32,000 bases of DNA, taken from Propionibacterium freudenreichii subsp. freudenreichii. GTDB taxonomy: Bacteria > Actinomycetota > Actinomycetes > Propionibacteriales > Propionibacteriaceae. The stretch is from NCBI RefSeq assembly GCF_000940845.1, contig NZ_CP010341.1:2310001-2342000 (forward strand), given 5' to 3'. Below the pieces are notes generated by a model. It was given only the letters and a program-made list of their open reading frames with translations, made no database searches and was not told the origin of the DNA. Below are positions 5,429 through 22,472 of the stretch, piece by piece (position 1 is the first letter of the stretch; the number at the start of each line of letters is the position of its first letter). A program made the position numbers and the translations under genes.

Positions 5429-6787
5429 ATGGCCACCACGCCTGCGGGAGCCCCGTCCTCACCGGGTGCCGCGCTGCACACGTCCGGACGGGTGCTCACC
5501 AACTGGAACCCCGAGGACGCCGCCACGTGGAGCCCCCGCATCGCGTGGCGCACGCTGGCGATCAGCACCTATTCGATGATCCTGGCGTTCTGCGTCTGGT
5601 TCCTGGTGAGCGCCATCGCGCCGAAGCTCAACTCCATCGGCTTCGGGCTGACGACCGGCCAGCTCTACTGGCTGGCCGCCATGCCGGGCCTGTCCTGCGG
5701 CCTCATCCGGCTCGTCTACATGTTCCTGCCGCCCATCATGGGCACCCGCAAGCTCGTCGGCTGGAGCTCGCTGCTCTACCTCATTCCGATGTTCGGCTGG
5801 TTCTTCGCGGTGCAGAACCCCCACACCAGCTTCTGGGTGCTCATGGTGCTGGCCTTCACCTGCGGCATCGGCGGCGGCACCTTCTCGGGCTATATGCCCA
5901 GCACCGGATACTTCTTCCCCAAGCGTCTGCAGGGCACCGCGCTGGGGCTGCAGGCCGGCATCGGCAACCTGGGCATGTCGATCATCCAGCTGGTGGGTCC
6001 GATCCTCATGGGCTTCAGCCTGTTCGGCATCACCTGGCTGGCCCCCGAGCACACCGCCAGCGGAAACCTGTGGGTGCACAACGCGGCGATCTTCTTCGTG
6101 CCGTGGACGATCGTCGCCGCCATCCTGGCGTTCACGCTGCTCAAGGACGTGCCGGTGAAGGCCAGCTTCCGCCAGCAGATCGACATCTTCAGCAACCCCG
6201 ACACCTGGCTCATGACGCTCATGTACGTGATGACCTTCGGCCTGTTCTCGGGATTCAGCGCCCAGTTCGGGCTGCTCATCAACTCCACCTACGGCGAGAC
6301 GAGCCGCTTCGCCGGCATGGCCGCGCTGCCGCAGGGCGTCACCTACGCCTTCCTCGGCCCGCTCATCGGCTCACTGGTGCGCGCCGGCTGGGGACCGCTG
6401 TGCGACCGCTTCGGCGGCGCCATCTGGACGTTCACCTCCGGCGTCGGCCTGGTGGTCACGCTCGGGTGGGCGGCCCTGTTCCTCAACCCCAGCGATCCCG
6501 GCCAGTTCCCCGGCTTCCTGTGGGCGATGCTGATCATGTTCTTCTTCGCCGGCATCGGCAACGCCGGCACCTTCAAGCAGATGCCGATGATCATGCCCAA
6601 GCGCCAGGCCGGCGGCGCCATCGGTTTCACCGCCGCCATCGGCAGCTTCGGCCCCTTCTTCATCGGCATCGCACTGTCCGCCATGAACGCCGCCGTGTGG
6701 TTCTGGATCTGTGCCGCATTCTGTGCGCTCTGCTCGGTGATCTGCTGGATTCGCTACGCCCGTCCGCGGGCGCCGTTCCCCGGCTGA
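5429..6787 (+). CDS. narK: Nitrate/nitrite transporter NarK (MFS)
   Basis: ATG 5429 follows GAGAGGA. The product is a polytopic membrane protein with nitrate/nitrite-porter-type glycine-rich motifs (GGGTFSGYMP, AGIGNAGTFKQMP). It lies immediately upstream of narG. Confidence 0.88.
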   Translation: MATTPAGAPSSPGAALHTSGRVLTNWNPEDAATWSPRIAWRTLAISTYSMILAFCVWFLVSAIAPKLNSIGFGLTTGQLYWLAAMPGLSCGLIRLVYMFLPPIMGTRKLVGWSSLLYLIPMFGWFFAVQNPHTSFWVLMVLAFTCGIGGGTFSGYMPSTGYFFPKRLQGTALGLQAGIGNLGMSIIQLVGPILMGFSLFGITWLAPEHTASGNLWVHNAAIFFVPWTIVAAILAFTLLKDVPVKASFRQQIDIFSNPDTWLMTLMYVMTFGLFSGFSAQFGLLINSTYGETSRFAGMAALPQGVTYAFLGPLIGSLVRAGWGPLCDRFGGAIWTFTSGVGLVVTLGWAALFLNPSDPGQFPGFLWAMLIMFFFAGIGNAGTFKQMPMIMPKRQAGGAIGFTAAIGSFGPFFIGIALSAMNAAVWFWICAAFCALCSVICWIRYARPRAPFPG

Positions 6788-6820: not shown

Positions 6821-9800
6821 ATGTCCACCAGCCAGCGCCAGCACGACCCGCACGAGAAGCCCGCGCACGAGCATGAGCAGCACAAGGCCGCCGACGGGAG
6901 CGGCTCCGGCTCCCCGCTGCTGCGCATGGGCAGCTGGCTGCGACGCGGCAAGGCCTCGCGCGACACCCGCCAGCTGTTCCTGGCCGGCGGACGCGACGCC
7001 GACGCCTTCTACCGGCAGCGCTGGAGCTACGACAAGGTGGTGCGCTCCACCCATGGCGTGAACTGCACCGGCTCCTGCTCGTGGAAGGTGTACGTCAAGG
7101 ACGGCATCATCAGCTGGGAGACCCAGGAGACCGACTACCCCACCACCGGCCCCGACCTGCCCGAGTACGAGCCCCGCGGCTGCCCCCGCGGCGCAGCCTT
7201 CAGCTGGTACGAGTACTCGCCCAACCGCGTGAAGCACCCCTATGTGCGCTCGGCGCTGCTCGACCCCTACCGCGAGGCCCGCGAACGCCTGGGCGACCCG
7301 GTGCTGGCCTGGGCGTCGATCACCGACGACCCCGCCATCTCGCGCAGCTACAAGTCGGCGCGCGGGCACGGCGGCATGGTGCGCGTCAGCTGGGAGGAGG
7401 CCACCGAGATCATCGCCGCGTCCTATGTGCACACCATCAAGGCCTACGGGCCCGACCGCATCGCCGGGTTCTCGGTGATCCCGGCGATGAGCATGATCTC
7501 CTACGCCGCCGGATCGCGCTTCCACGAGCTGCTGGGCGCGCCGATGCTGAGCTTCTACGACTGGTACGCCGACCTGCCGCCGGCCAGCCCGCAGGTGTTC
7601 GGCGACCAGACCGACGTGCCCGAATCGGGCGACTGGTTCAACGCGCAGTACCTGATCATGTGGGGCTCCAATGTGCCGCTCACCCGCACACCCGACGCGC
7701 ACTTCATGACCGAGGCGCGCTACCACGGCCAGAAGGTCGTGGCGGTGAGCCCCGACTTCGCCGACAACACCAAGTTCGCCGACGACTGGCTGCGCGTGGC
7801 CCCCGGCACGGACGCCGCGCTGGCCCAGGCCATGGGCCATGTGATCCTGTCCGAGTTCCATGTCAGGCGCCGCGAGCCGTTCTTCCTCGATTACATGCGC
7901 CGCTATTCCGACGCGCCCTTCCTCATTGAGCTGGACGACGCCGCCACCGACGCCCCCGCCTCAGGCAGCCCCGCCACCAACGCGGCCACACAGGTCGTCC
8001 CCGGCAAGTTCCTGACCGCCGACAAGATGCCGGCCGGCACCACCGAACGCACCGACAACCAGGCGTTCCGCCCGCTGGTGCTCGACGCCGACGGCACCGT
8101 GAAGGACCCCGGCGGCACGCTCGCCGACCACTTCGGCGACCAGGGCGCCGGGCACTGGAACCTCACCCTCGACGGCGTCGCCCCGGTGCTGTCGCTGATG
8201 GACACCGACGACTGGACGCCGGTGGAGGTGACCCTGCCGCGCTTCGACCTGCCCACCCAGCCCGGCCAGGCCAGCCTCGGCGGCGGCACCGTGCGCCGCG
8301 GCGTGCCGGCGCGTCGGATCAATGGCCGCCTGGTGACCACCGTCTTCGACCTGCTGCTGGCCCAGTACGCCGTGGGACGCGAGGGCCTGCCCGGCCAGTG
8401 GCCCACCGGCTACGACGACGCCTCCACGCCGGGCACCCCCGCCTGGCAGGAGGAACTCACCGGCGTCGCCAGCGGTGCCGCCATCAAGATCGGCCGCGAA
8501 TTCGCCCTCAATGCCCTGGAGTCGAAGGGCCGGTCGATGATCCTCATGGGCGCCGGCGTCAACCACTACTTCCACGCCGACCTCATCTACCGCACCTTCC
8601 TGGCGCTCACCACGATGTGCGCCACCCAGGGCGTCAACGGCGGTGGCTGGGCCCATTACGTGGGCCAGGAGAAGGTGCGTCCGGTCACCGGGTTCTCGAA
8701 CTACGCGTTCGCCCTCGACTGGCAGCGCCCGGCCCGGCAGATGATCGCCACCGGCTGGTTCTACCTCACCACCGACCAGTGGCGCTACGACGGGGCACGC
8801 GCCGACGCGATGGCCAACCCGCTGGGAGGGGCGTCGTTCGCCGGCAAGACGACGGCCGACTGCCTGGTGGAATCGGCCCAGCGCGGCTGGATGCCCAGCT
8901 ACCCCACCTTCGACCGTTCGCCCCTCGAGTTGGGACGCCAGGCCCACGAGGCCGGCATGGCGCCGGGTGACTATGTGTCCGGCGAACTACGCGCCGGGCG
9001 CCTGCACTTCGCCGCCGAGGATCCCGACGCACCCGAGAACATGCCCCGCGTGCTGGCCAATTGGCGCACTAACCTGCTCGGCTCGTCGGCCAAGGGCACC
9101 GAGTTCTTCCTGCGCCACATGCTGGGCGCCGACAACGACGTGCAGGCCAGCGAGCTCGACGCCGACCATCGTCCCGCCTCGATGACCTGGCGCGACGAGG
9201 CACCCGCCGGCAAGCTCGACCTGATGTGGACCGCCGACTTCCGCAACACCTCCACCACCCTGCACTCCGACGTGGTGCTGCCGGCGGCCACCTGGTACGA
9301 GAAGCACGACCTGTCGAGCACCGACATGCATCCCTTCGTGCACTCGTTCAACGCGGCGGTCGACCCGCCGTGGGAGGCCCGCACCGACTTCCAGACCTTC
9401 CAGGAGCTGGCGCATCTCATCTCACGCATGGCGGCCACCCACCTGGGCACCCAGACCGACGCGCTGGCGGTGGCGCTCACCCACGATTCGCCCGACGAGC
9501 TGGCCACCCCCGGTGGCGTCGTGGACGCCGAGCGGGGCTGGGTGCCGGGCGTCACCATGCCCAGGATCGTGGCTGTGGAGCGCGACTACACCCAGATCGG
9601 CAACAAGTTCGACACGCTCGGCCCGCTGCTGGCCAGCGCCGGCATGACCACCAAGACGGTCGCCTTCCATCCCGACCGCGAGCTCGACGAGCTCGGCGAG
9701 CTGAACGGACGCGCCGACCAGGGCCGCGGCGCCGGGGCCGGCAGGCCCCTGGTCGACACCGACATCAAGGCCGCCGACGCCGTGCTCAAGCTGTCGGGCA

Positions 9801-10256
9801 CCACCAACGGACGCCTCGCCACCCAGGGCTTCCGCACCCTGGAGGCGCGCACCGGCACCCAGTTGGCCGACCTGGCCGCCGCCGACGAGGACAAGCGGAT
9901 CAGCTTCGCCGACACCGCCGTGCAGCCGCGCTCGGTGATCACCTCACCGGAATGGTCGGGTTCGGAACATGGCGGACGACGCTATTCGGCATTCGTGCAG
10001 AATGTGGAACGCAACAAGCCGTGGCATACGCTCACCGGGCGTCCGCAATTCTATCTCGACCATGATTGGATGATCGACCTGGGCGAAGCCCTGCCGATAT
10101 TCCGTCCACCGCTGGACATGGCCCATATCTATGGTGGGCAGGCGCTCGGCGAGGCACGTAGCACCGCCACGGGGGAAACCCAGGTGGCCGTGCGATATCT
10201 CACCCCGCACAACAAATGGGCCATCCATTCCCAGTACTACGACAATCCCTATATGC
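6821..10256 (+). pseudogene. narG: narG 5' fragment (nitrate reductase alpha subunit), truncated by an IS insertion
   Basis: GGAGG precedes ATG 6821. Contains the FS0 motif HGVNCTGSCSW and Mo-bisMGD enzyme motifs. After 10256 the frame reads 10 IS-encoded codons to a stop at 10288. Confidence 0.93.
10249..10256. repeat. Target-site duplication, left copy (CTATATGC)
   Basis: Identical 8-mer at 11684-11691, directly abutting the two IS inverted repeats. Confidence 0.9.
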
Positions 10257-11683
10257 GGCTCTTCACGAACGAGGGTGTAGCGGGTTGAGCGTGTCGGTGG
10301 CCGGGTAGGGGTCGAGGTCTCCCTGAGGATGGAAGTTCTCACACTCGCCATCTGCCGGAAGACCTCGACGTGTCACACCCTACTTTCACTACACCTTGCC
10401 TGACCACGTTCTGCGGTCTCGACGAGCTCGGCCTGGAGGCTGTCGGGCAGCGTCTGGACCCGGATCGGGCGGTGATCGAGTGCCGTGTCGTGGAGCCGGA
10501 CCGGTGGTGCCGCGAGTGTGGATGCGAGGGCGCCCCGCGCGACACGGTGATCCGTCGGCTCGCGCATGAGCCATTCGGGCATCGGCCCACGACCCTGCTG
10601 ATCCGGGTCCGGCGCTACAAATGCTGCGGGTGTGGGCGGGTCTGGCGGCAAGACACCACGGCCGCCGCGCCGGTACGGGCGAAGATCTCCCGCGGTGGGT
10701 TGGCGTGGGGGCTGGCGGGCTTGGTCCTCGATCATCTCTCGGTCACGCGTGTCGCGGCAGGGCTGGGGGTGTCCTGGTCCGCCGCGAACGACGCGATCCT
10801 CGCCGAGGGCCGCCGGCGGCTGATCGATGACCCGGCGCGGTTCGAGGGCGTGACCACGATCGGCGTCGACGAGCACGTGTGGCGACACACCCGCCACGGC
10901 GACACGTACGTGACCGTGATCATCGACCTGACCCCGGTGCGCGACAAGACCGGCCCGGCACGGCTGCTGGACATGGTCGCCGGACGCTCGAAAGCCGTGT
11001 TCAAGACCTGGCTCGCCGCCAGACCGAAGCCCTGGCGAGAGGGGATCGAGGTCGTCGCCATGGACGGATTCACCGGGTTCAAGACCGCCGCCGCCGAAGA
11101 ACTGCCCGACGCGGCCCCGGTCATGGATCCGTTCCACGTGATCCGGCTCGCCGGTGACGCGCTGGAGAACTGCCGACGCCGGGTACAGCACGACGTCTTC
11201 GGCCGGCGGGGCATGAAGGGCGATCCGCTCTACCAGGCCAGACGGACCCTGCTCACCGGTGCCGGTCTGCTCACCGACAAGCAGCAGGCGCGGCTAGATG
11301 CCCTGTTCGCCGACGACAGGCACGTCGAGGTCGAAGCGACGTGGGGCATCTACCAAGACATGATCACCGCCTACCGGGACAAGGACCGCGGCCTGGGCAG
11401 ATTCTTCCTCGCGCACACGATCGACAAGATCAGCGCCAGCGTCCCGGAGCAGCTCGTCGAGATCCGCAAACTCGCCCGCACCCTCACACAGCGCGCTTCG
11501 GACGTGCTCGGCTACTTCGACCGCCCCGGCACCAGCAACGGCCCCACCGAAGCGATCAACGGCCGACTCGAACACCTCCGCGGCACGGCCCTCGGCTTCC
11601 GCAACCTCAGCCACTACATCGCTCGGTCGCTGCTCGAAGCCGGCGGATTCAGACCCGCGCTACACCCTCGTTCGTGAAGAGCC
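10257..11683 (+). mobile_element. ISL3-family insertion sequence (1,427 bp) inside narG
   Basis: Perfect 25-bp terminal IRs: GGCTCTTCACGAACGAGGGTGTAGC at 10257-10281 and its exact reverse complement at 11659-11683. It carries a single transposase ORF and an 8-bp TSD, as is typical for ISL3. Confidence 0.92.
10370..11677 (+). CDS. ISL3-family transposase
   Basis: 435 aa. The N-terminal zinc-finger-like region has two Cys pairs (CRECGC and CCGCG). ISL3-type core motifs are present (IGVDEHVW, VAMDGFTGFK, DPFHVI, SNGPTEAINGRLE). The stop codon lies inside IRR. Confidence 0.9.
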   Translation: MSHPTFTTPCLTTFCGLDELGLEAVGQRLDPDRAVIECRVVEPDRWCRECGCEGAPRDTVIRRLAHEPFGHRPTTLLIRVRRYKCCGCGRVWRQDTTAAAPVRAKISRGGLAWGLAGLVLDHLSVTRVAAGLGVSWSAANDAILAEGRRRLIDDPARFEGVTTIGVDEHVWRHTRHGDTYVTVIIDLTPVRDKTGPARLLDMVAGRSKAVFKTWLAARPKPWREGIEVVAMDGFTGFKTAAAEELPDAAPVMDPFHVIRLAGDALENCRRRVQHDVFGRRGMKGDPLYQARRTLLTGAGLLTDKQQARLDALFADDRHVEVEATWGIYQDMITAYRDKDRGLGRFFLAHTIDKISASVPEQLVEIRKLARTLTQRASDVLGYFDRPGTSNGPTEAINGRLEHLRGTALGFRNLSHYIARSLLEAGGFRPALHPRS

Positions 11684-12071
11684 CTATATGCTCACGCTGG
11701 GCCGGGGCGGGCAGACCATCTGGATGAGCCCCGCCGACGCGGAGCGCATCGGCGTGCGCGACAACGAATGGGTCGAGGCGCACAACCGCAACGGGGTGGT
11801 GTCGGCGCGGGCGATCGTCTCGCACCGCATTCCGGCCGGCACGGTGTTCATGCACCACGCCCAGGAACGCACGATGAACACCCCGCTCAACGAGAGCACC
11901 GGAAAGCGCGGCGGAATCCATAATTCGCTGACCCGCATCATGATCAAGCCGACGCATTTGATCGGCGGATATGCCCAGTTGTCATATTCGTTCAATTACT
12001 ACGGCCCCACCGGAAACCAGCGCGACGAGGTCACCCTCATTCGCCGCCGCGGCCAGGAGGTGCAGTTCTGA
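11684..12071 (+). pseudogene. narG: narG 3' fragment (C-terminal domain); the first 8 bp are the right TSD copy
   Basis: Encodes (Y)MLTLGRGGQTIWMSPADAERIGVRDNEWVEAHNRNG..GGIHNSLTRIMIKPTHLIGGYAQLSYSFNYYGPTG, collinear with the conserved NarG C-terminus. Its stop shares one nucleotide with the narH start. Confidence 0.92.
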
Positions 12072-13582
12072 TGAAGGTCATGGCGCAGATCGCAATGATC
12101 ATGAACCTCGACAAGTGCATCGGGTGCCACACCTGCTCGGTCACCTGCAAGCAGGTGTGGACCAACCGCGAGGGCATGGAATACGCCTGGTTCAACAATG
12201 TGGAGACCCGTCCCGGCGTGGGCTATCCGCGCACCTGGGAGGACCAGGACCGCTGGAAGGGCGGGTGGCGTCGCACGAAGTCCGGCGCGCTGGTGCCGCG
12301 TCAGGGCGGCCGGGCCAGGACGCTGGCGAACATCTTCGCCAATCCCACGCTGCCCGACGTCAATGACTACTACGAGCCGTGGACCTACGAATACGACAAG
12401 CTGCTCACCGCCCCGGCCGGGGAGCGCAACATCCCGGTGGCGCGCGCCACGTCGTCCACCGATGGGCGCCATATCGACACCATCGAGTGGGGGCCCAACT
12501 GGGACGACGACCTGGGCGGCTCGATGGAGACCCTCGACTCCGACCCCGTGCTGAAGGCGATGAACCTGCAGGTGGCCAAGACCATCGAGGACTCGTTCAT
12601 GTTCTACCTGCCGCGCATCTGCGAGCACTGCCTCAACCCCACCTGCGTGTCGGCCTGCCCCTCGGGCGCCATGTACAAGCGCGCCGAGGACGGCATCGTG
12701 CTGGTTGACCAGGACCGCTGCCGTGGTTGGCGGATGTGCGTGTCGGGCTGCCCGTACAAGAAGGTCTATTTCAACCACAAGACCGGCAAGGCCGAGAAGT
12801 GCACGCTGTGCTATCCGCGTCTGGAGGCCGGCATGCCCACGGTGTGCTCCGAAACCTGCGTGGGGCGGCTGCGCTACCTCGGCGTGCTGCTCTACGACGC
12901 CGACCGGGTGTCGTGGGCCGCGTCGCAGGCCGACGAACACGACCTCTACCGTGCCCAGCGCGAGATCCTGCTCGACCCCCACGATCCCGAGGTGGTGGCC
13001 CGGGCGCAGGCCGACGGCGTGCCCCACTCGTGGATCGACGCCGCGCAGGCGTCGCCGGTGTGGGACCTCATCTCCACCTATGGCGTGGCGCTGCCCCTGC
13101 ATCCGGAATTCCGCACGATGCCGATGGTCTGGTACGTGCCGCCGCTGAGCCCGGTGGTCGACGCGGTCACCGCCAGTGGCAGCGACGGCGAGGACCACAA
13201 GGTGCTGCTGTCGGCCATCTCGCAGATGCGCATTCCGCTCGACTACCTGGCCGGGCTGTTCACGGCCGGCGATCCCGCCCCCGTGGAGCTGTCGCTGCGC
13301 CGGTTGGCAGCGATGCGCTCCTATATGCGCGATGTGTTCATGGACAACCCGCCCGACGAGTCGATCGCGGCGGCGGTGGGCATGAGCGGCGAGCAGGTGC
13401 AGGCGATGTACCGGCTGCTGTCGATTGCCAAGTACGACGACCGCTTCGTGATTCCCACCACGCATCCCGAGATGCCGCGCGGCATCACCGAGCTCGAGGG
13501 CTGCCCGGTGGGATATGACGCCCGCGCCTTCCCCGGCGGGCACACCCCCGGCGGCCCGACCCTGCCGTTGGAGGTGATCTGA
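12071..13582 (+). CDS. narH: Nitrate reductase beta subunit NarH (4 Fe-S clusters)
   Basis: MKVMAQIAMIMNLDKCIGCHTCSVTCK.. plus further ferredoxin-type Cys clusters (CEHCLNPTCVSACP, CRGWRMCVSGCP, CTLCYPR). Confidence 0.95.
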   Translation: MKVMAQIAMIMNLDKCIGCHTCSVTCKQVWTNREGMEYAWFNNVETRPGVGYPRTWEDQDRWKGGWRRTKSGALVPRQGGRARTLANIFANPTLPDVNDYYEPWTYEYDKLLTAPAGERNIPVARATSSTDGRHIDTIEWGPNWDDDLGGSMETLDSDPVLKAMNLQVAKTIEDSFMFYLPRICEHCLNPTCVSACPSGAMYKRAEDGIVLVDQDRCRGWRMCVSGCPYKKVYFNHKTGKAEKCTLCYPRLEAGMPTVCSETCVGRLRYLGVLLYDADRVSWAASQADEHDLYRAQREILLDPHDPEVVARAQADGVPHSWIDAAQASPVWDLISTYGVALPLHPEFRTMPMVWYVPPLSPVVDAVTASGSDGEDHKVLLSAISQMRIPLDYLAGLFTAGDPAPVELSLRRLAAMRSYMRDVFMDNPPDESIAAAVGMSGEQVQAMYRLLSIAKYDDRFVIPTTHPEMPRGITELEGCPVGYDARAFPGGHTPGGPTLPLEVI

Positions 13583-14406
13583 TGGGCGAGTTCGTGGGCC
13601 TTCCCAGCGTGCCGGTGGCCGACACCGTGACGCTTGACGACGCCCCGCGCCGCATCGCGCGGATGGCCTGTTCGCTGCTGCTCGACTATCCCGACGAGGC
13701 GCTCGCCACCACCCTGGGTGCGGTGCGCGCCGAAGTGGGGGCGCTGCCGGCCCCGGTGCGCGAGGAGATCGACGCCTTCTGCGCGGCCGCCGAGCAGTTG
13801 GGCGTCCGGGCGCTGCAGGAACACTATGTGGAGGTGTTCGACCAGCGGCGACGCTGCGCGCTGTCCCTGACCTATTTCACCCACGGCGACACCCGTGGCC
13901 GCGGGCAGGCGCTGTTGGCGTTCCGTGAGGCGATGCGCCGGGCCGGTTTCAGCCAGGTCCGCGAGGAGCTGCCCGACTACCTGCCGATCGTGCTCGAGCT
14001 GTGCGCGCTGGACGACACCGGCACCGGCGAGGCGCTGTTGGCCGCCAACCGGGAGGGGCTGGAGGTGATCCGCACGGCACTGCGGTCGGCGCACTCGCCC
14101 TATGCCCACCTGCTGGAGGCCATCGTGCGCACCCTGCCCGCCGCCAGCGACGAGACCATGGCCGCCTATCGCCGCCTCATCGCCCAGGGCCCGCCCACCG
14201 AGTTGGTGGGCGTGGGGCGTCCCACCCTGCATGAGCCCCTCGAGCCCAACACCCGAGAGCCCGGGCCCCACGAACACGGCCCCCACGAACCCGGCCCCCA
14301 CGAACCCGGCCCCCACGAGCCCAACACCCACGAACCCGGGCTCCACGCGTCCAATCCGCACGCACCCAACCCGCACGCGCCCAGCCCCCACGGAAGAGGG
14401 AAGTGA
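13582..14406 (+). CDS. narJ: Nitrate reductase assembly chaperone NarJ with a C-terminal His/Pro repeat tail
   Basis: Has a NarJ/TorD-like core (YVEVFD, LPDYLPIVLE) in the position between narH and narI. Its last ~55 aa are pentapeptide repeats. Confidence 0.85.
   Translation: MGEFVGLPSVPVADTVTLDDAPRRIARMACSLLLDYPDEALATTLGAVRAEVGALPAPVREEIDAFCAAAEQLGVRALQEHYVEVFDQRRRCALSLTYFTHGDTRGRGQALLAFREAMRRAGFSQVREELPDYLPIVLELCALDDTGTGEALLAANREGLEVIRTALRSAHSPYAHLLEAIVRTLPAASDETMAAYRRLIAQGPPTELVGVGRPTLHEPLEPNTREPGPHEHGPHEPGPHEPGPHEPNTHEPGLHASNPHAPNPHAPSPHGRGK
14263..14394 (+). repeat. 15-bp tandem repeat x ~8.5 (consensus GGCCCCCACGAACCC), in frame within the narJ 3' end
   Basis: The units start at 14263, 14278, 14293, 14308, 14323, 14338, 14353, 14368 and 14383. 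Together they encode GPHEH GPHEP GPHEP GPHEP NTHEP GLHAS NPHAP NPHAP SPH. Confidence 0.9.
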
Positions 14407-15131: not shown

Positions 15132-16375
15132 CCGTGCAGGCGGCCGGCACTGCGTCCACCACGGGCACTGCGGCTCCAATGGGCACTGCGTCCAAAGTCG
15201 GCGCTGCGTCTCCAGTGGGCACGGTGTCCAAAGCCGGCACCGCGTCCAGGACCGGCACTGTGTCCAAGACCGGCGCTGCGTCCACTGACAACGCTGCGTC
15301 CACAGCGCACACCGGCGACATGGCGTCCACCACGCTCCAACTGGACACCATCACGCACCTGACCGGCGCGCAGTACACGCTGCTGGCACGCATCGGCGCG
15401 CATGCCTCGCCGGTCACCGTCACCGAGCTGGCCCACGAGCTGGGCCGCCACGTCAGCTCGGTGCGCGAGACGCTCGACGCGCTGCTGCGGATCGGGCTGG
15501 TCACCTCGCAGCGGCTCCCGGCGTCGGGACGCGGACGCCCGGCCCTGGGCTATTCGGCACACGTGCCCGCCGGGCCCGTGGGTGCACCCCAGCTGTTCGA
15601 CCAGGTCTGCGCAGCCTTCCTCGACTACCTGCGCGCCAACGTCCCCGATCCGCTGCGCGCCGCCCGCCGGGTAGGCTGCGACTGGGGCGGACGTGCCCTG
15701 ACGCTGATGAAGGTGCCCGACCACCACGATTTCTCGCTGCCCGAATCGCAGTTCCCGCTGGCCGACCACCTCGAGAAGATCCGGATGTTCCTCAACATCT
15801 TCGGGTTCGGGGTGCATGTCCACCCGCAGCAGGCGACCACCCTGGTGCTCACCGCCATCCCGTTCGGCCAGCCCGTGGGCCGTCCAGCAGGTGGCGACGG
15901 CGACGAACCCGGCACCCCGGAGCCCGATCCCCTGGCGCTGGAGTTGCGTCGCGGCATGGTCGAGCGTGCACTTGAGCTCACTGCCTGCGACGATGTGGTC
16001 GCACGCTATCTACCCGGACCCGGCATGGAGGCCGAGCTGGTGCTGACACGCACCACCGGGCAGCACGATTCCCAATCCCCCGAACAGAGCGAGAAGCCCA
16101 TGACGCACATCCGCTACTTCGCCGCCGCCGCCGAAGCTGCCGGCACCGATTCCGAGCAGATCGGCCTCGACGAGATCGGCGCGCAGGAGATCAGCGTCGA
16201 CAAGCACCCCACCACGCTGGGCGAGCTCGTCGACCACCTTGCCGGACGCCACGCCGGGCTCGCCAAGGTGCTCCGGGTGTCGAGTTTCCTGGTGAACGAG
16301 CGCCCCGCCGACCGTGATGCGCCGCTGCCCGCGGGTGCGGTGGTCGACGTGCTGCCGCCCTTCGCCGGCGGCTGA
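15128..16375 (+). CDS. Uninterrupted ORF: winged-helix transcriptional regulator (same position as ArnR of the Corynebacterium nar locus) fused in frame to MoaD
   Basis: Start candidates are GTG 15128 (GTGA overlap with the narI stop), GTG 15134 and ATG 15320. The wHTH is VTVTELAHELGRHVSSVRETLDALLRIGLV (~15410-15500). The regulator part has three Cys. I checked codon by codon across 16040-16102 and found no stop before the MoaD module. Track positions 14558-15127 of the same frame are out-of-frame overlap with narI. Confidence 0.55.
   Translation: MTVQAAGTASTTGTAAPMGTASKVGAASPVGTVSKAGTASRTGTVSKTGAASTDNAASTAHTGDMASTTLQLDTITHLTGAQYTLLARIGAHASPVTVTELAHELGRHVSSVRETLDALLRIGLVTSQRLPASGRGRPALGYSAHVPAGPVGAPQLFDQVCAAFLDYLRANVPDPLRAARRVGCDWGGRALTLMKVPDHHDFSLPESQFPLADHLEKIRMFLNIFGFGVHVHPQQATTLVLTAIPFGQPVGRPAGGDGDEPGTPEPDPLALELRRGMVERALELTACDDVVARYLPGPGMEAELVLTRTTGQHDSQSPEQSEKPMTHIRYFAAAAEAAGTDSEQIGLDEIGAQEISVDKHPTTLGELVDHLAGRHAGLAKVLRVSSFLVNERPADRDAPLPAGAVVDVLPPFAGG
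15146..15307 (+). repeat. 18-bp tandem repeat x 9 (consensus GGCACTGCGTCCAnnnnn)
   Basis: Contiguous units start every 18 bp from 15146 to 15290. In the frame of the downstream ORF they encode GTASTT GTAAPM GTASKV GAASPV GTVSKA GTASRT GTVSKT GAASTD NAASTA. Confidence 0.9.
16100..16375 (+). CDS. moaD: Molybdopterin synthase sulfur-carrier subunit MoaD (module, or an independently initiated protein)
   Basis: MTHIRYFAAAAEAAG...VVDVLPPFAGG: 91 aa of ThiS/MoaD beta-grasp type with the obligatory C-terminal GG, directly upstream of moaE. Only a weak RBS (GAGAAG) precedes ATG 16100. Confidence 0.8.
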   Translation: MTHIRYFAAAAEAAGTDSEQIGLDEIGAQEISVDKHPTTLGELVDHLAGRHAGLAKVLRVSSFLVNERPADRDAPLPAGAVVDVLPPFAGG

Positions 16376-20927: not shown

Positions 20928-21112
20928 GGCCTCATCGTGGCACGTCGGCCCTGCTTGCGGGGCGCGTCCCCACCCGCTTGCCGTCCCCGGCCGTTCCGAC
21001 GCCATGAGTCGGCACATAGGTGACACGTCCAGCCCCAAACCCGCCGGGCAAGCCCGTTTGAAGCGCCCTGAGTTTGTTGGAGACTCCTGACCTTGGAAAC
21101 GAGGATGGGGTT

Positions 21113-21457
21113 ATGCCGAAGGAACTGGCGAATGGGAAGCCGACGACGCGTCGCTACTCGGTCGAGGAGAAGGCCGCCGCGGTGCGGATGGTGAGGACGC
21201 TGCGCGCGGAGCTGGGCGTCACGCAGGGGACGGTGCAGCGGGTCGCGACGCAGCTCGGTTACGGGGTCGAGTCCGTGCGGATGTGGGTCAAGCAGGCCGA
21301 CGTCGACGACGGTGTCGTCCCCGGTGTGAGCTCGGCGGAGGAGCAGCGGGTGAAAGAGCTCGAGCAAGAGAATCGGGAGCTGCGCCGGGCCAACGAGGTG
21401 CTGAAACGGGCGGCGTCTTTCTTCGGGGCGGAGCTCGACCGCCACTACCGGAAGTAG
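21113..21457 (+). CDS. IS3 transposase OrfA (HTH / leucine-zipper part)
   Basis: MPKELANGKPTTRRYSVEEKAAAVRMV.. ..ELEQENRELRRANEVLKRAASFFGAELD, a typical IS3 OrfA ending. Confidence 0.88.
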   Translation: MPKELANGKPTTRRYSVEEKAAAVRMVRTLRAELGVTQGTVQRVATQLGYGVESVRMWVKQADVDDGVVPGVSSAEEQRVKELEQENRELRRANEVLKRAASFFGAELDRHYRK

Positions 21458-22377
21458 TCGCGTTCATCGACGCGAACAAGGACGACGTCGTGGACGGTCG
21501 CCGGCTCGGAGTCGAGCTCATCTGCAGACTGTTGCAGGTGGCTCCGAGCAGCTACTACGCCGCCAAGACCCGTGCGCCCTCTGCCCGTGCGCTGCGTGAC
21601 GAGGAACTGATCCCGCAGCTGGTCGAGATCTGGGAGGCCAACTACCGCGTCTACGGGGTCCGCAAGCTCTGGAAGGCTGCCCGGCGTGGGGGCATCATGA
21701 TCGGCCGCGACCAGACTGCGAGGCTGATGCGCGTCGCAGGGATCGAAGGTGCGAGGCGGTCGAAGCGGGTGAAGACCACGCGGCCGGACCCGGCGTCGTC
21801 GCGGCACCCGGACCTGGTCAAGCGGGAGTTCACCGCGACGGCACCGAACCGGCTCTGGGTGACCGATCTGACATTCGTGCCCACCTGGGCTGGCGTCGCC
21901 TACGTCTGCTTCATCATCGACGCGTTCTCCCGGATGATCGTGGGGTGGCGGGTCGCGTCACATATGCGCACCGAGATGGTCCTCGACGCGATCGAGATGG
22001 CGCGCTGGTCCCGAGGCGCCCACCATGAGGATCTGCGGTGTCACAGCGACGCGGGCTGTCAATTCACATCGATTCGCTACGGCGAACGCCTCGCAGAGAT
22101 CGGTGCGACACCCTCGATCGGGACCGTCGGCGATTCGTATGACAACGCCCTGGCCGAGACGGTGAACGGCTACTACAAGGCCGAGTTGGTTCGCGGGCCC
22201 ACCCGCTCGGGACCGTGGAAGACGGTCGAGGATCTCGAGCTCGCGACGCTCGGCTGGGTGCACTGGCACAACACGCAGCGCCTCCACGGATACCTCGGAG
22301 ACGTCCCACCCGCCGAGTTCGAGAACGCGTTCTATGCTGTCCCCAACGACAGCAATCTGCTGATCGGAATCAAATAG
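21283..22377 (+). CDS. IS3 transposase OrfB (DDE catalytic part); open -1 frame, presumably expressed as an OrfAB fusion by -1 frameshifting near 21400-21455
   Basis: DD(35)E signature: WVTDLTF, HSDAGCQFTS, YDNALAETVNGYYKAE. The frame is -1 relative to orfA and overlaps it. The coordinates give the extent of the open frame, not a proven start. Confidence 0.8.
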   Translation: MGQAGRRRRRCRPRCELGGGAAGERARARESGAAPGQRGAETGGVFLRGGARPPLPEVVAFIDANKDDVVDGRRLGVELICRLLQVAPSSYYAAKTRAPSARALRDEELIPQLVEIWEANYRVYGVRKLWKAARRGGIMIGRDQTARLMRVAGIEGARRSKRVKTTRPDPASSRHPDLVKREFTATAPNRLWVTDLTFVPTWAGVAYVCFIIDAFSRMIVGWRVASHMRTEMVLDAIEMARWSRGAHHEDLRCHSDAGCQFTSIRYGERLAEIGATPSIGTVGDSYDNALAETVNGYYKAELVRGPTRSGPWKTVEDLELATLGWVHWHNTQRLHGYLGDVPPAEFENAFYAVPNDSNLLIGIK

Positions 22378-22472
22378 CGCGAGTCTCCATCAGACCCAGG
22401 GCGCTTCAGTTGGTCCAACCCAAGCCCCGTCAGCTCGGCCCGGGACCCTTGGTCCGGCCCAAACCCCGCTAG

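Follow-up and report, generated by a model that had tools for sequence, protein, structure and literature searches.

How does the reference genome of a strain that typifies a nitrate-positive subspecies come to carry a broken gene for the catalytic subunit of nitrate reductase? The question is raised by a stretch of 32,000 nucleotides from Propionibacterium freudenreichii subsp. freudenreichii (NZ_CP010341.1, positions 2,310,001 to 2,342,000 of the forward strand; hereafter called the window), which holds a narK-narGHJI nitrate reductase locus next to genes for the molybdenum cofactor (Moco). Its source, CP010341, is strain DSM 20271T, also called JS16, the type strain of the species and of its lactose-negative, nitrate-positive subspecies (genome paper, PMC4619572). 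A first-pass annotation, made from the letters of the window alone, had claimed that narG is split by a pristine insertion sequence (IS) of the ISL3 family. Our analysis bears this out: an element with an intact ISL3 transposase separates two portions of narG that part at codon 1145/1146 (Table 1). We explain the locus by a recent ISL3 insertion into narG of DSM 20271T with predicted loss of the membrane-bound nitrate reductase, and give this explanation a probability of roughly 0.88.

Window positions 10257-11683 are an intact ISL3-family IS. The element ends in perfect terminal inverted repeats, GGCTCTTCACGAACGAGGGTGTAGCG, which are the longest inverted repeat that a repeat search found between positions 10000 and 12000, and its 1,427 bp are bracketed by an exact, AT-rich 8-bp target-site duplication, CTATATGC. 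The first-pass annotation had described perfect repeats of 25 bp and an exact 8-bp duplication; the perfect repeats and the duplication stand, while the length of the repeats has to be corrected to 26 nt. The repeat search gives the direct repeat as 10 nt, since the last two bases of the IS (CC) equal the two bases preceding the target. The possibility that a perfect 26-nt inverted repeat and an exact 8-nt duplication arose here by chance is negligible. One intact transposase open reading frame (ORF) makes up the whole coding content of the IS, with its stop codon inside the right inverted repeat; it lies on the + strand and is thus co-oriented with narG, as had been noted before. The transposase matches the ISL3 model NF033550 with 355.9 bits (cutoff 180) over model positions 1-369 of 370, and the DDE_Tnp_ISL3 domain PF01610 with 189.7 bits. 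In the ISfinder description, members of the ISL3 family are compact elements of about 1.2-1.6 kb with one transposase ORF filling most of their length. The present element shows this size and single-ORF layout, a DDE transposase profile over the full length of the protein, terminal repeats in the range of about 15-40 bp, an 8-bp duplication of the often AT-rich type and copies with identical ends at unrelated loci. The exact transposase protein is deposited as AJQ91753.1, AJQ89852.1 and AJQ90076.1 under the NCBI name 'ISL3-like element ISPfr1 family transposase'. We provisionally assign the element to ISPfr1 on the strength of this protein label, 'ISPfr1 family', rather than of a comparison with the ISfinder reference ISPfr1; plasmid relatives labelled ISPfr2 are only about 72% identical.

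Ten further copies of the IS (L011-L020) were retrieved via the exact transposase protein. They are 99.7-100% identical to the element, align to 10257..11683 within a base or so and have unrelated flanks; three of them are 100% identical to the copy in narG. One copy (L016) aligns over a longer stretch due to its similar target: with both flanks assembled, it is bracketed by TCATATCC, which is likewise an 8-bp duplication and has ATAT at its core. A count of the other copies in the genome, which the first-pass annotation had proposed, could be made in part: counted by protein accessions, CP010341 holds at least three identical transposase genes (AJQ89852.1, AJQ90076.1, AJQ91753.1).

Intact NarG has 1271 residues, of which 1125-1236 form the C-terminal molybdopterin-dinucleotide-binding domain (PF01568). 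The insertion breaks the protein behind residue 1145 and so falls 21 residues into this domain. The 5' ORF extends into the element as far as position 10288, where ten IS-encoded residues (RLFTNEGVAG) are followed by a TGA. The resulting 1155-aa product, NarG', is identical to AJQ91752.1 (locus RM25_RS10125, CP010341.1; supplement of PMC11494915). The ORF of the tail starts at an ATG that is the native Met1145, inside the duplicated target and 11 nt past the transposase stop, and is called as a separate gene in a metagenome contig (L060). When positions 10257-11691 are removed in silico, the two portions rejoin, as had been claimed, into one ORF of 3,816 nt (1,271 codons plus stop), and the join falls in the conserved C-terminal domain; with a slash at the junction, the repaired protein reads ..HSQYYDNPYM/LTLGRGGQTIWMSPADAERIG.. 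(also given as ..YYDNPYM/LTLGRGG..). An alignment of the repaired ORF with NarG references had been suggested as a check, and it proved collinear: the TIGR01580 (narG) model is matched in a single stretch with 1528 bits (cutoff 1084.15; model positions 21-1227 of 1235), as is Escherichia coli NarG with 1261 bits (1Q16 chain A; residues 12-1227 of 1247). Residue for residue, the repaired NarG equals a deposited intact P. freudenreichii protein (CEG92044.1 / WP_060759134.1). The gene thus has the full-length model match and the narK-narGHJI and Moco gene context of a narG, and lacks an uninterrupted coding sequence. With E. coli NarGHI (PDB 1Q16, 1R27) the locus shares the narGHJI order, an upstream narK and the one-stretch alignment of NarG, whereas the window gene is split and encodes an actinobacterial protein that is extended by about 30 residues at the N-terminus and contains several short insertions.

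When did the element enter narG? Judged from the sequences compared, the insertion is real and very recent. An empty site with a single CTATATGC is present in all ten complete genomes compared, the flanks of which differ from the window by 0.1-1.9%, and empty sites with one copy of the octamer were found in 13 other loci in all. Three of these loci, L065 (GCA_900000125.1, CCYR01000053.1), L066 (ERR727043) and L067 (GCA_030235365.1), lack the IS, carry one CTATATGC and match the window with 100.000% identity to the left and to the right of the insertion. For L065, the comparison covers 10,256 + 9,407 bp (19,663 bp) with 0 mismatches and 0 gaps. The first-pass annotation had called the insertion a recent event, and the existence of such sequence-identical empty-site loci leads us to the same conclusion. 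Moreover, the IS3-family element at window position 21059 is shared by L065 and L066, both of which break off 30 bp inside it. The filled allele was recovered as well: two metagenome contigs (L021, L022) cross the left junction from narG into the IS, and a third (L060) crosses the right one from the IS into the 3' end of narG and narH, each with 100% identity to the window. In the JGI metagenome contigs scanned, the exact left junction was not found. The type strain as kept in France, CIRM-BIA121T, was reported to be nitrate-positive at 2 days, with its nar island scored complete (PMC4471392). We thus consider it probable that the holdings of the type strain had already separated when one stock lineage acquired the insertion. 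Movement of ISL3 transposases within single cultures (PMC5644110) makes such a drift of stocks plausible.

The course of events that we propose begins with one copy of the multi-copy ISPfr1-family IS, which would have transposed into the AT-rich target CTATATGC in narG and duplicated it. The cell would be left with NarG' only, plus possibly a separate 127-aa tail. Lacking most of its C-terminal domain, NarG' would be expected to be unable to hold the molybdenum bis-molybdopterin guanine dinucleotide (Mo-bisMGD) cofactor, and the activity of the membrane-bound nitrate reductase is predicted to be lost despite intact narK, narHJI and Moco genes in the window. As for timing, the event most likely took place in the sequenced stock lineage, after its separation from holdings that kept an intact narG and reduce nitrate. 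'Loss of nitrate respiration' in the sequenced stock is in this sense a prediction.

Transcription of the genes behind the IS appears to continue. A 2024 transcriptome and surfaceome study of DSM 20271 (PMC11494915) reports anaerobic induction of narG' (RM25_RS10125) and of RM25_RS10135-10150 behind the IS, the latter up to 17-fold, and lists NarG' in the anaerobic surfaceome from a single peptide; the induction is read there as anaerobic nitrate respiration, the genes on either side of the IS are counted as a working nitrate reductase, and the interruption by the IS goes unmentioned. An anaerobically induced nar promoter probably transcribes through the IS into narHJI; the induction of the downstream genes fits such read-through, if indirectly, and the first-pass annotation had expected nar promoter activity to read into the transposase. 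No terminator-like site was found on the + strand of the IS, the sole such site between 6500 and 12300 lying on the minus strand. Over the same interval no outward or internal promoter of the sigma-70 type was found, with a consensus that fits an actinobacterium of 69% G+C poorly. A predicted stable leader hairpin encloses the GTG start of the transposase (Table 1) and might limit translation of the transposase from read-through transcripts; its region is nearly invariant among relatives (first 160 nt) and too conserved for covariation.

Could the split gene be a product of the assembly instead? Multi-copy IS elements can mislead assemblers, and the exact 1155-aa product occurs in only one complete genome, so that a copy misplaced into narG by the PacBio assembler deserves consideration. 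Yet both junctions were assembled independently in the short-read metagenomes, the perfect 8-bp target duplication is the mark of a real transposition and the genome was covered 198x (PMC4619572); we regard an artefact as scarcely conceivable. An old, decaying pseudogene, with an early loss of nitrate respiration in this lineage and the IS as only one of several lesions, would be in keeping with the independent nar and Moco lesions of other P. freudenreichii strains, including a second ISL3-type insertion in narG, and with the common deletion of narK, narG and part of narH (PMC4437456). It is nevertheless very improbable for the window: all other nar and Moco genes that lie wholly within it are of full length, the halves of narG rejoin into a protein identical to a deposited intact one, the empty-site allele shows 0 differences in 19.7 kb, and the IS, which has perfect repeats and a perfect duplication, matches other copies at 100%. 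Taken together, the junctions in independent metagenome contigs, the identical empty allele and the identity of the IS copy to others rule out both accounts.

A different matter is whether this locus still supports nitrate reduction in the sequenced culture of DSM 20271T, either by frequent precise excision of ISPfr1 or by reconstitution of the enzyme from NarG' (residues 1-1145) and the 127-aa tail. The strain is catalogued as nitrate-positive, filled and empty alleles coexist in otherwise identical backgrounds, the genes behind the IS keep their anaerobic induction, one peptide of NarG' has been observed and the tail ORF begins at a native methionine. On the other hand, the break lies within the PF01568 domain and not at a domain boundary, the catalogue phenotype is older than the sequenced stock, and the detection of NarG' amounts to a single peptide. 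Precise excision of an IS is normally rare, and we know of no split Mo-bisMGD catalytic subunit. Residual activity by either route is therefore unlikely in our view. If the excision route were true, nitrate respiration would be a reversible, IS-driven on/off trait within one strain. Reversible inactivation by insertion and precise excision is known for IS256 in the staphylococcal ica operon and IS492 in Pseudoalteromonas eps. These systems resemble the present case in having an intact IS with a perfect duplication in a non-essential gene, and filled and empty alleles in otherwise identical backgrounds; they differ from it in that evidence of switching within one culture is absent here and the empty allele is most simply ancestral.

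Several points weigh against the recent insertion as we have dated and interpreted it. The genome paper (PMC4619572) calls the strain nitrate-reducing, but does so by citing the taxonomic definition alone; transposases and a defect of narG are not mentioned in it. The divergence of stocks stands on sequence identity and the shared IS3 junction, and is probable rather than demonstrated. The filled allele is also found in metagenomes; the insertion is thus not confined to one laboratory culture and may be older than the Helsinki stock. The same pair of alleles would result from a precise excision in the other lineage, but with the site empty in every other strain this is the less parsimonious account. 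With regard to transcription, a separate anaerobic promoter downstream of the IS could take the place of read-through. We nonetheless prefer the recent insertion in one stock lineage, which would suggest that different holdings of one type strain differ in a taxonomically diagnostic trait.

What does this allele add to the known nitrate polymorphism of the species? Published work traces the nitrate phenotype of P. freudenreichii to the nar locus (Loux 2015, PMC4437456), and the view of the first-pass annotation that events of this kind could underlie strain-level nitrate-negative phenotypes fits the species well. Published causes of the nitrate-negative state are a deletion of narK, narG and the 5' part of narH (CIRM-BIA1 and most negative strains) and a nonsense mutation in narG (CIRM-BIA513) (PMC4437456). 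narG has been reported missing from 39% of 112 genomes. The present allele affects the same locus and the same subspecies-defining polymorphism, with the same predicted loss of the respiratory nitrate reductase. It differs in being an IS insertion with the other window genes intact, in being revertible in principle and in its occurrence in the type strain of the nitrate-positive subspecies. The common deletion showed 'no trace of transposase' (Loux et al., PMC4437456), unlike the insertion in the window. IS insertion is a third, recurrent route to the nitrate-negative state beside deletion and point mutation, and the final 500 bp of narG have received ISL3-type insertions at least twice independently. 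In another lineage (L061-L064; NarG' of 1127 aa, CEP26607.1), narG is broken 76 bp upstream of the present site (at about window position 10180) by a different ISL3-type end, GGGTCTTCTCAGATGAGGGTGTAGG / GGGTCTTCTCAGATGAGGGTGTAGGTCGG, and the contigs stop within about 30 bp.

Other strains carry lesions of further kinds: W203* in narK (L001), E1163* in narG together with a narK frameshift (L002, strain JS9), frameshifts in narK and moaA (L008) and a frameshift in mobA (L010, strain JS20). The frameshifts in L002, L008 and L010 come from PacBio assemblies and are possibly sequencing errors. The variety of nar and Moco lesions suggests repeated independent decay of nitrate respiration. In the literature searched, we found no paper describing an IS insertion in narG or this particular allele, which appears to have gone unremarked in the DSM 20271T reference. 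The mechanism itself is ordinary: an active ISL3 element meets a dispensable respiratory gene in a species known for both. For general biology, the case is a routine knock-out by an IS; for research on P. freudenreichii it matters in practice, as the type-strain reference genome of a nitrate-defined subspecies, and a common model strain, carries a broken catalytic nitrate reductase gene.

Active ISL3 elements are documented in the species. ISPfr1 is present in ten complete copies in strain CIRM-BIA1 (supplement of Falentin 2010, PMC2909200), and within single P. freudenreichii cultures the position of ISL3 transposases was found to vary between sub-populations (Deptula 2017, PMC5644110). By analogy with this published within-culture translocation, the present element may likewise be active in transposition. 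Like ISPfr1 and other ISL3 elements of the species (PMC2909200, PMC5644110), it is about 1.4 kb long, encodes one DDE transposase with the ISL3 profile, has terminal repeats starting with GGCTCTT and 8-bp target duplications, and is multi-copy. Those elements are reported to move in cultures and to disrupt genes such as citT and those of restriction-modification systems, whereas the site at narG codon 1145/1146 is unmentioned in the literature searched.

Beyond the species, the exact 26-mer terminal repeat is present in many Actinomycetota genomes; the species-representative genomes searched for the exact repeat yielded no P. freudenreichii record. Partial copies of the IS (54-858 nt, at contig ends) with 99-100% identity occur in Acidipropionibacterium jensenii DSM 20535 and A. 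thoenii DSM 20276 (L028, L032, L037, L038, L042, L049, L054). Such near-identical copies in another genus of dairy propionibacteria imply recent horizontal exchange. Plasmid and phage collections held only relatives of 71-76% identity, so that no vector was identified. Relatives that are only about 79% identical overall share the identical 26-nt terminal repeat (L031, L033, L039, L043-L045, L056-L058); their hosts are Micrococcus, Kocuria, Actinomyces, Rothia, Brachybacterium, Kytococcus and Dermabacter. Among the relatives, the first 160 nt or so of the element are about 95% conserved, compared to 79% for the body.

On the + strand of the window, the target octamer CTATATGC has three native occurrences, compared to 0.12 expected from base composition. 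Besides the narG site, it is found at 5890 in narK and at 13321 in narH, and each occurrence spells Tyr-Met in a nar gene. The native sites in narK and narH may be further preferred targets of ISPfr1, or a coincidence.

Table 1 Features of the split narG, the inserted element and the neighbouring nar genes (positions in the window).
Feature	Position	Strand	Remarks
narK, nitrate/nitrite transporter of the major facilitator superfamily, 452 aa	5429..6787	+	Intact; TIGR00886, 240 bits
narG, 5' portion, codons 1-1145	6821..10256	+	
Left copy of target-site duplication, CTATATGC	10249..10256		
ISL3-family insertion sequence, 1,427 bp	10257..11683	+	ISPfr1 family by NCBI naming; ends set by ten other copies
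Left terminal inverted repeat, 26 nt, GGCTCTTCACGAACGAGGGTGTAGCG	10257..10282		
Predicted leader hairpin enclosing the GTG start of the transposase	10291..10394	+	-48.1 kcal/mol, z = -2.98
Transposase ORF, 435 aa, GTG start	10370..11677	+	Co-oriented with narG
Right terminal inverted repeat, 26 nt	11658..11683		
Right copy of target-site duplication, CTATATGC	11684..11691		
narG, 3' portion, 127-aa ORF	11688..12071	+	PF01568, 73.5 bits, from profile position 26
narH, 503 aa	12071..13582	+	Intact; TIGR01660, 769.7 bits
narJ, 274 aa	13582..14406	+	Intact; TIGR00684, 115.5 bits
narI, 239 aa	14412..15131	+	Intact; TIGR00351, 199.4 bits

The remaining genes of the locus were compared with their orthologues in ten complete genomes that carry an identical NarH. 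This comparison upholds the earlier claim that narK, narH, narJ, narI and the Moco genes are intact, for the genes that lie wholly in the window; modBC are cut by its left edge. Fourteen nar and Moco genes (narK, narH, narJ, narI, modA, mog, mobA, moaA, HTH-moaD, moaE, moeB, moeA, moaC and moaB; HTH, helix-turn-helix) are without internal stops, of full length and collinear with the ten genomes, most of them at 98-100% identity. narK is of full length and 99.3-100% identical to its intact orthologues, narH is 100% and narI 99.6-100% identical, and narJ occurs in alleles of 264, 269 and 274 aa that differ by in-frame repeat units. These allele lengths are due to in-frame 15-nt tandem repeats at the 3' end of narJ (14260-14392). 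An unusual ORF of 371 aa (15260-16375), with repeats of 18/36 nt at its start (15144-15285), fuses a MarR-like HTH to a MoaD/ThiS domain and is conserved in all strains examined. An Rfam scan of the window returned no riboswitch, whether for Moco or other ligands.

A second intact IS, of the IS3 family, occupies positions 21059-22408 (1,350 bp), just beyond the HIT gene that ends the Moco cluster. It has TG...CA ends, imperfect terminal repeats and a 3-bp duplication (GTT), and comprises orfA and orfB with an ALIL frameshift pseudoknot (RF01497, 21412-21546, 51.9 bits). The site at 21059 is empty in six of the ten complete genomes and holds different sequence or mobile DNA in three others, which gives it the look of an insertion hotspot.

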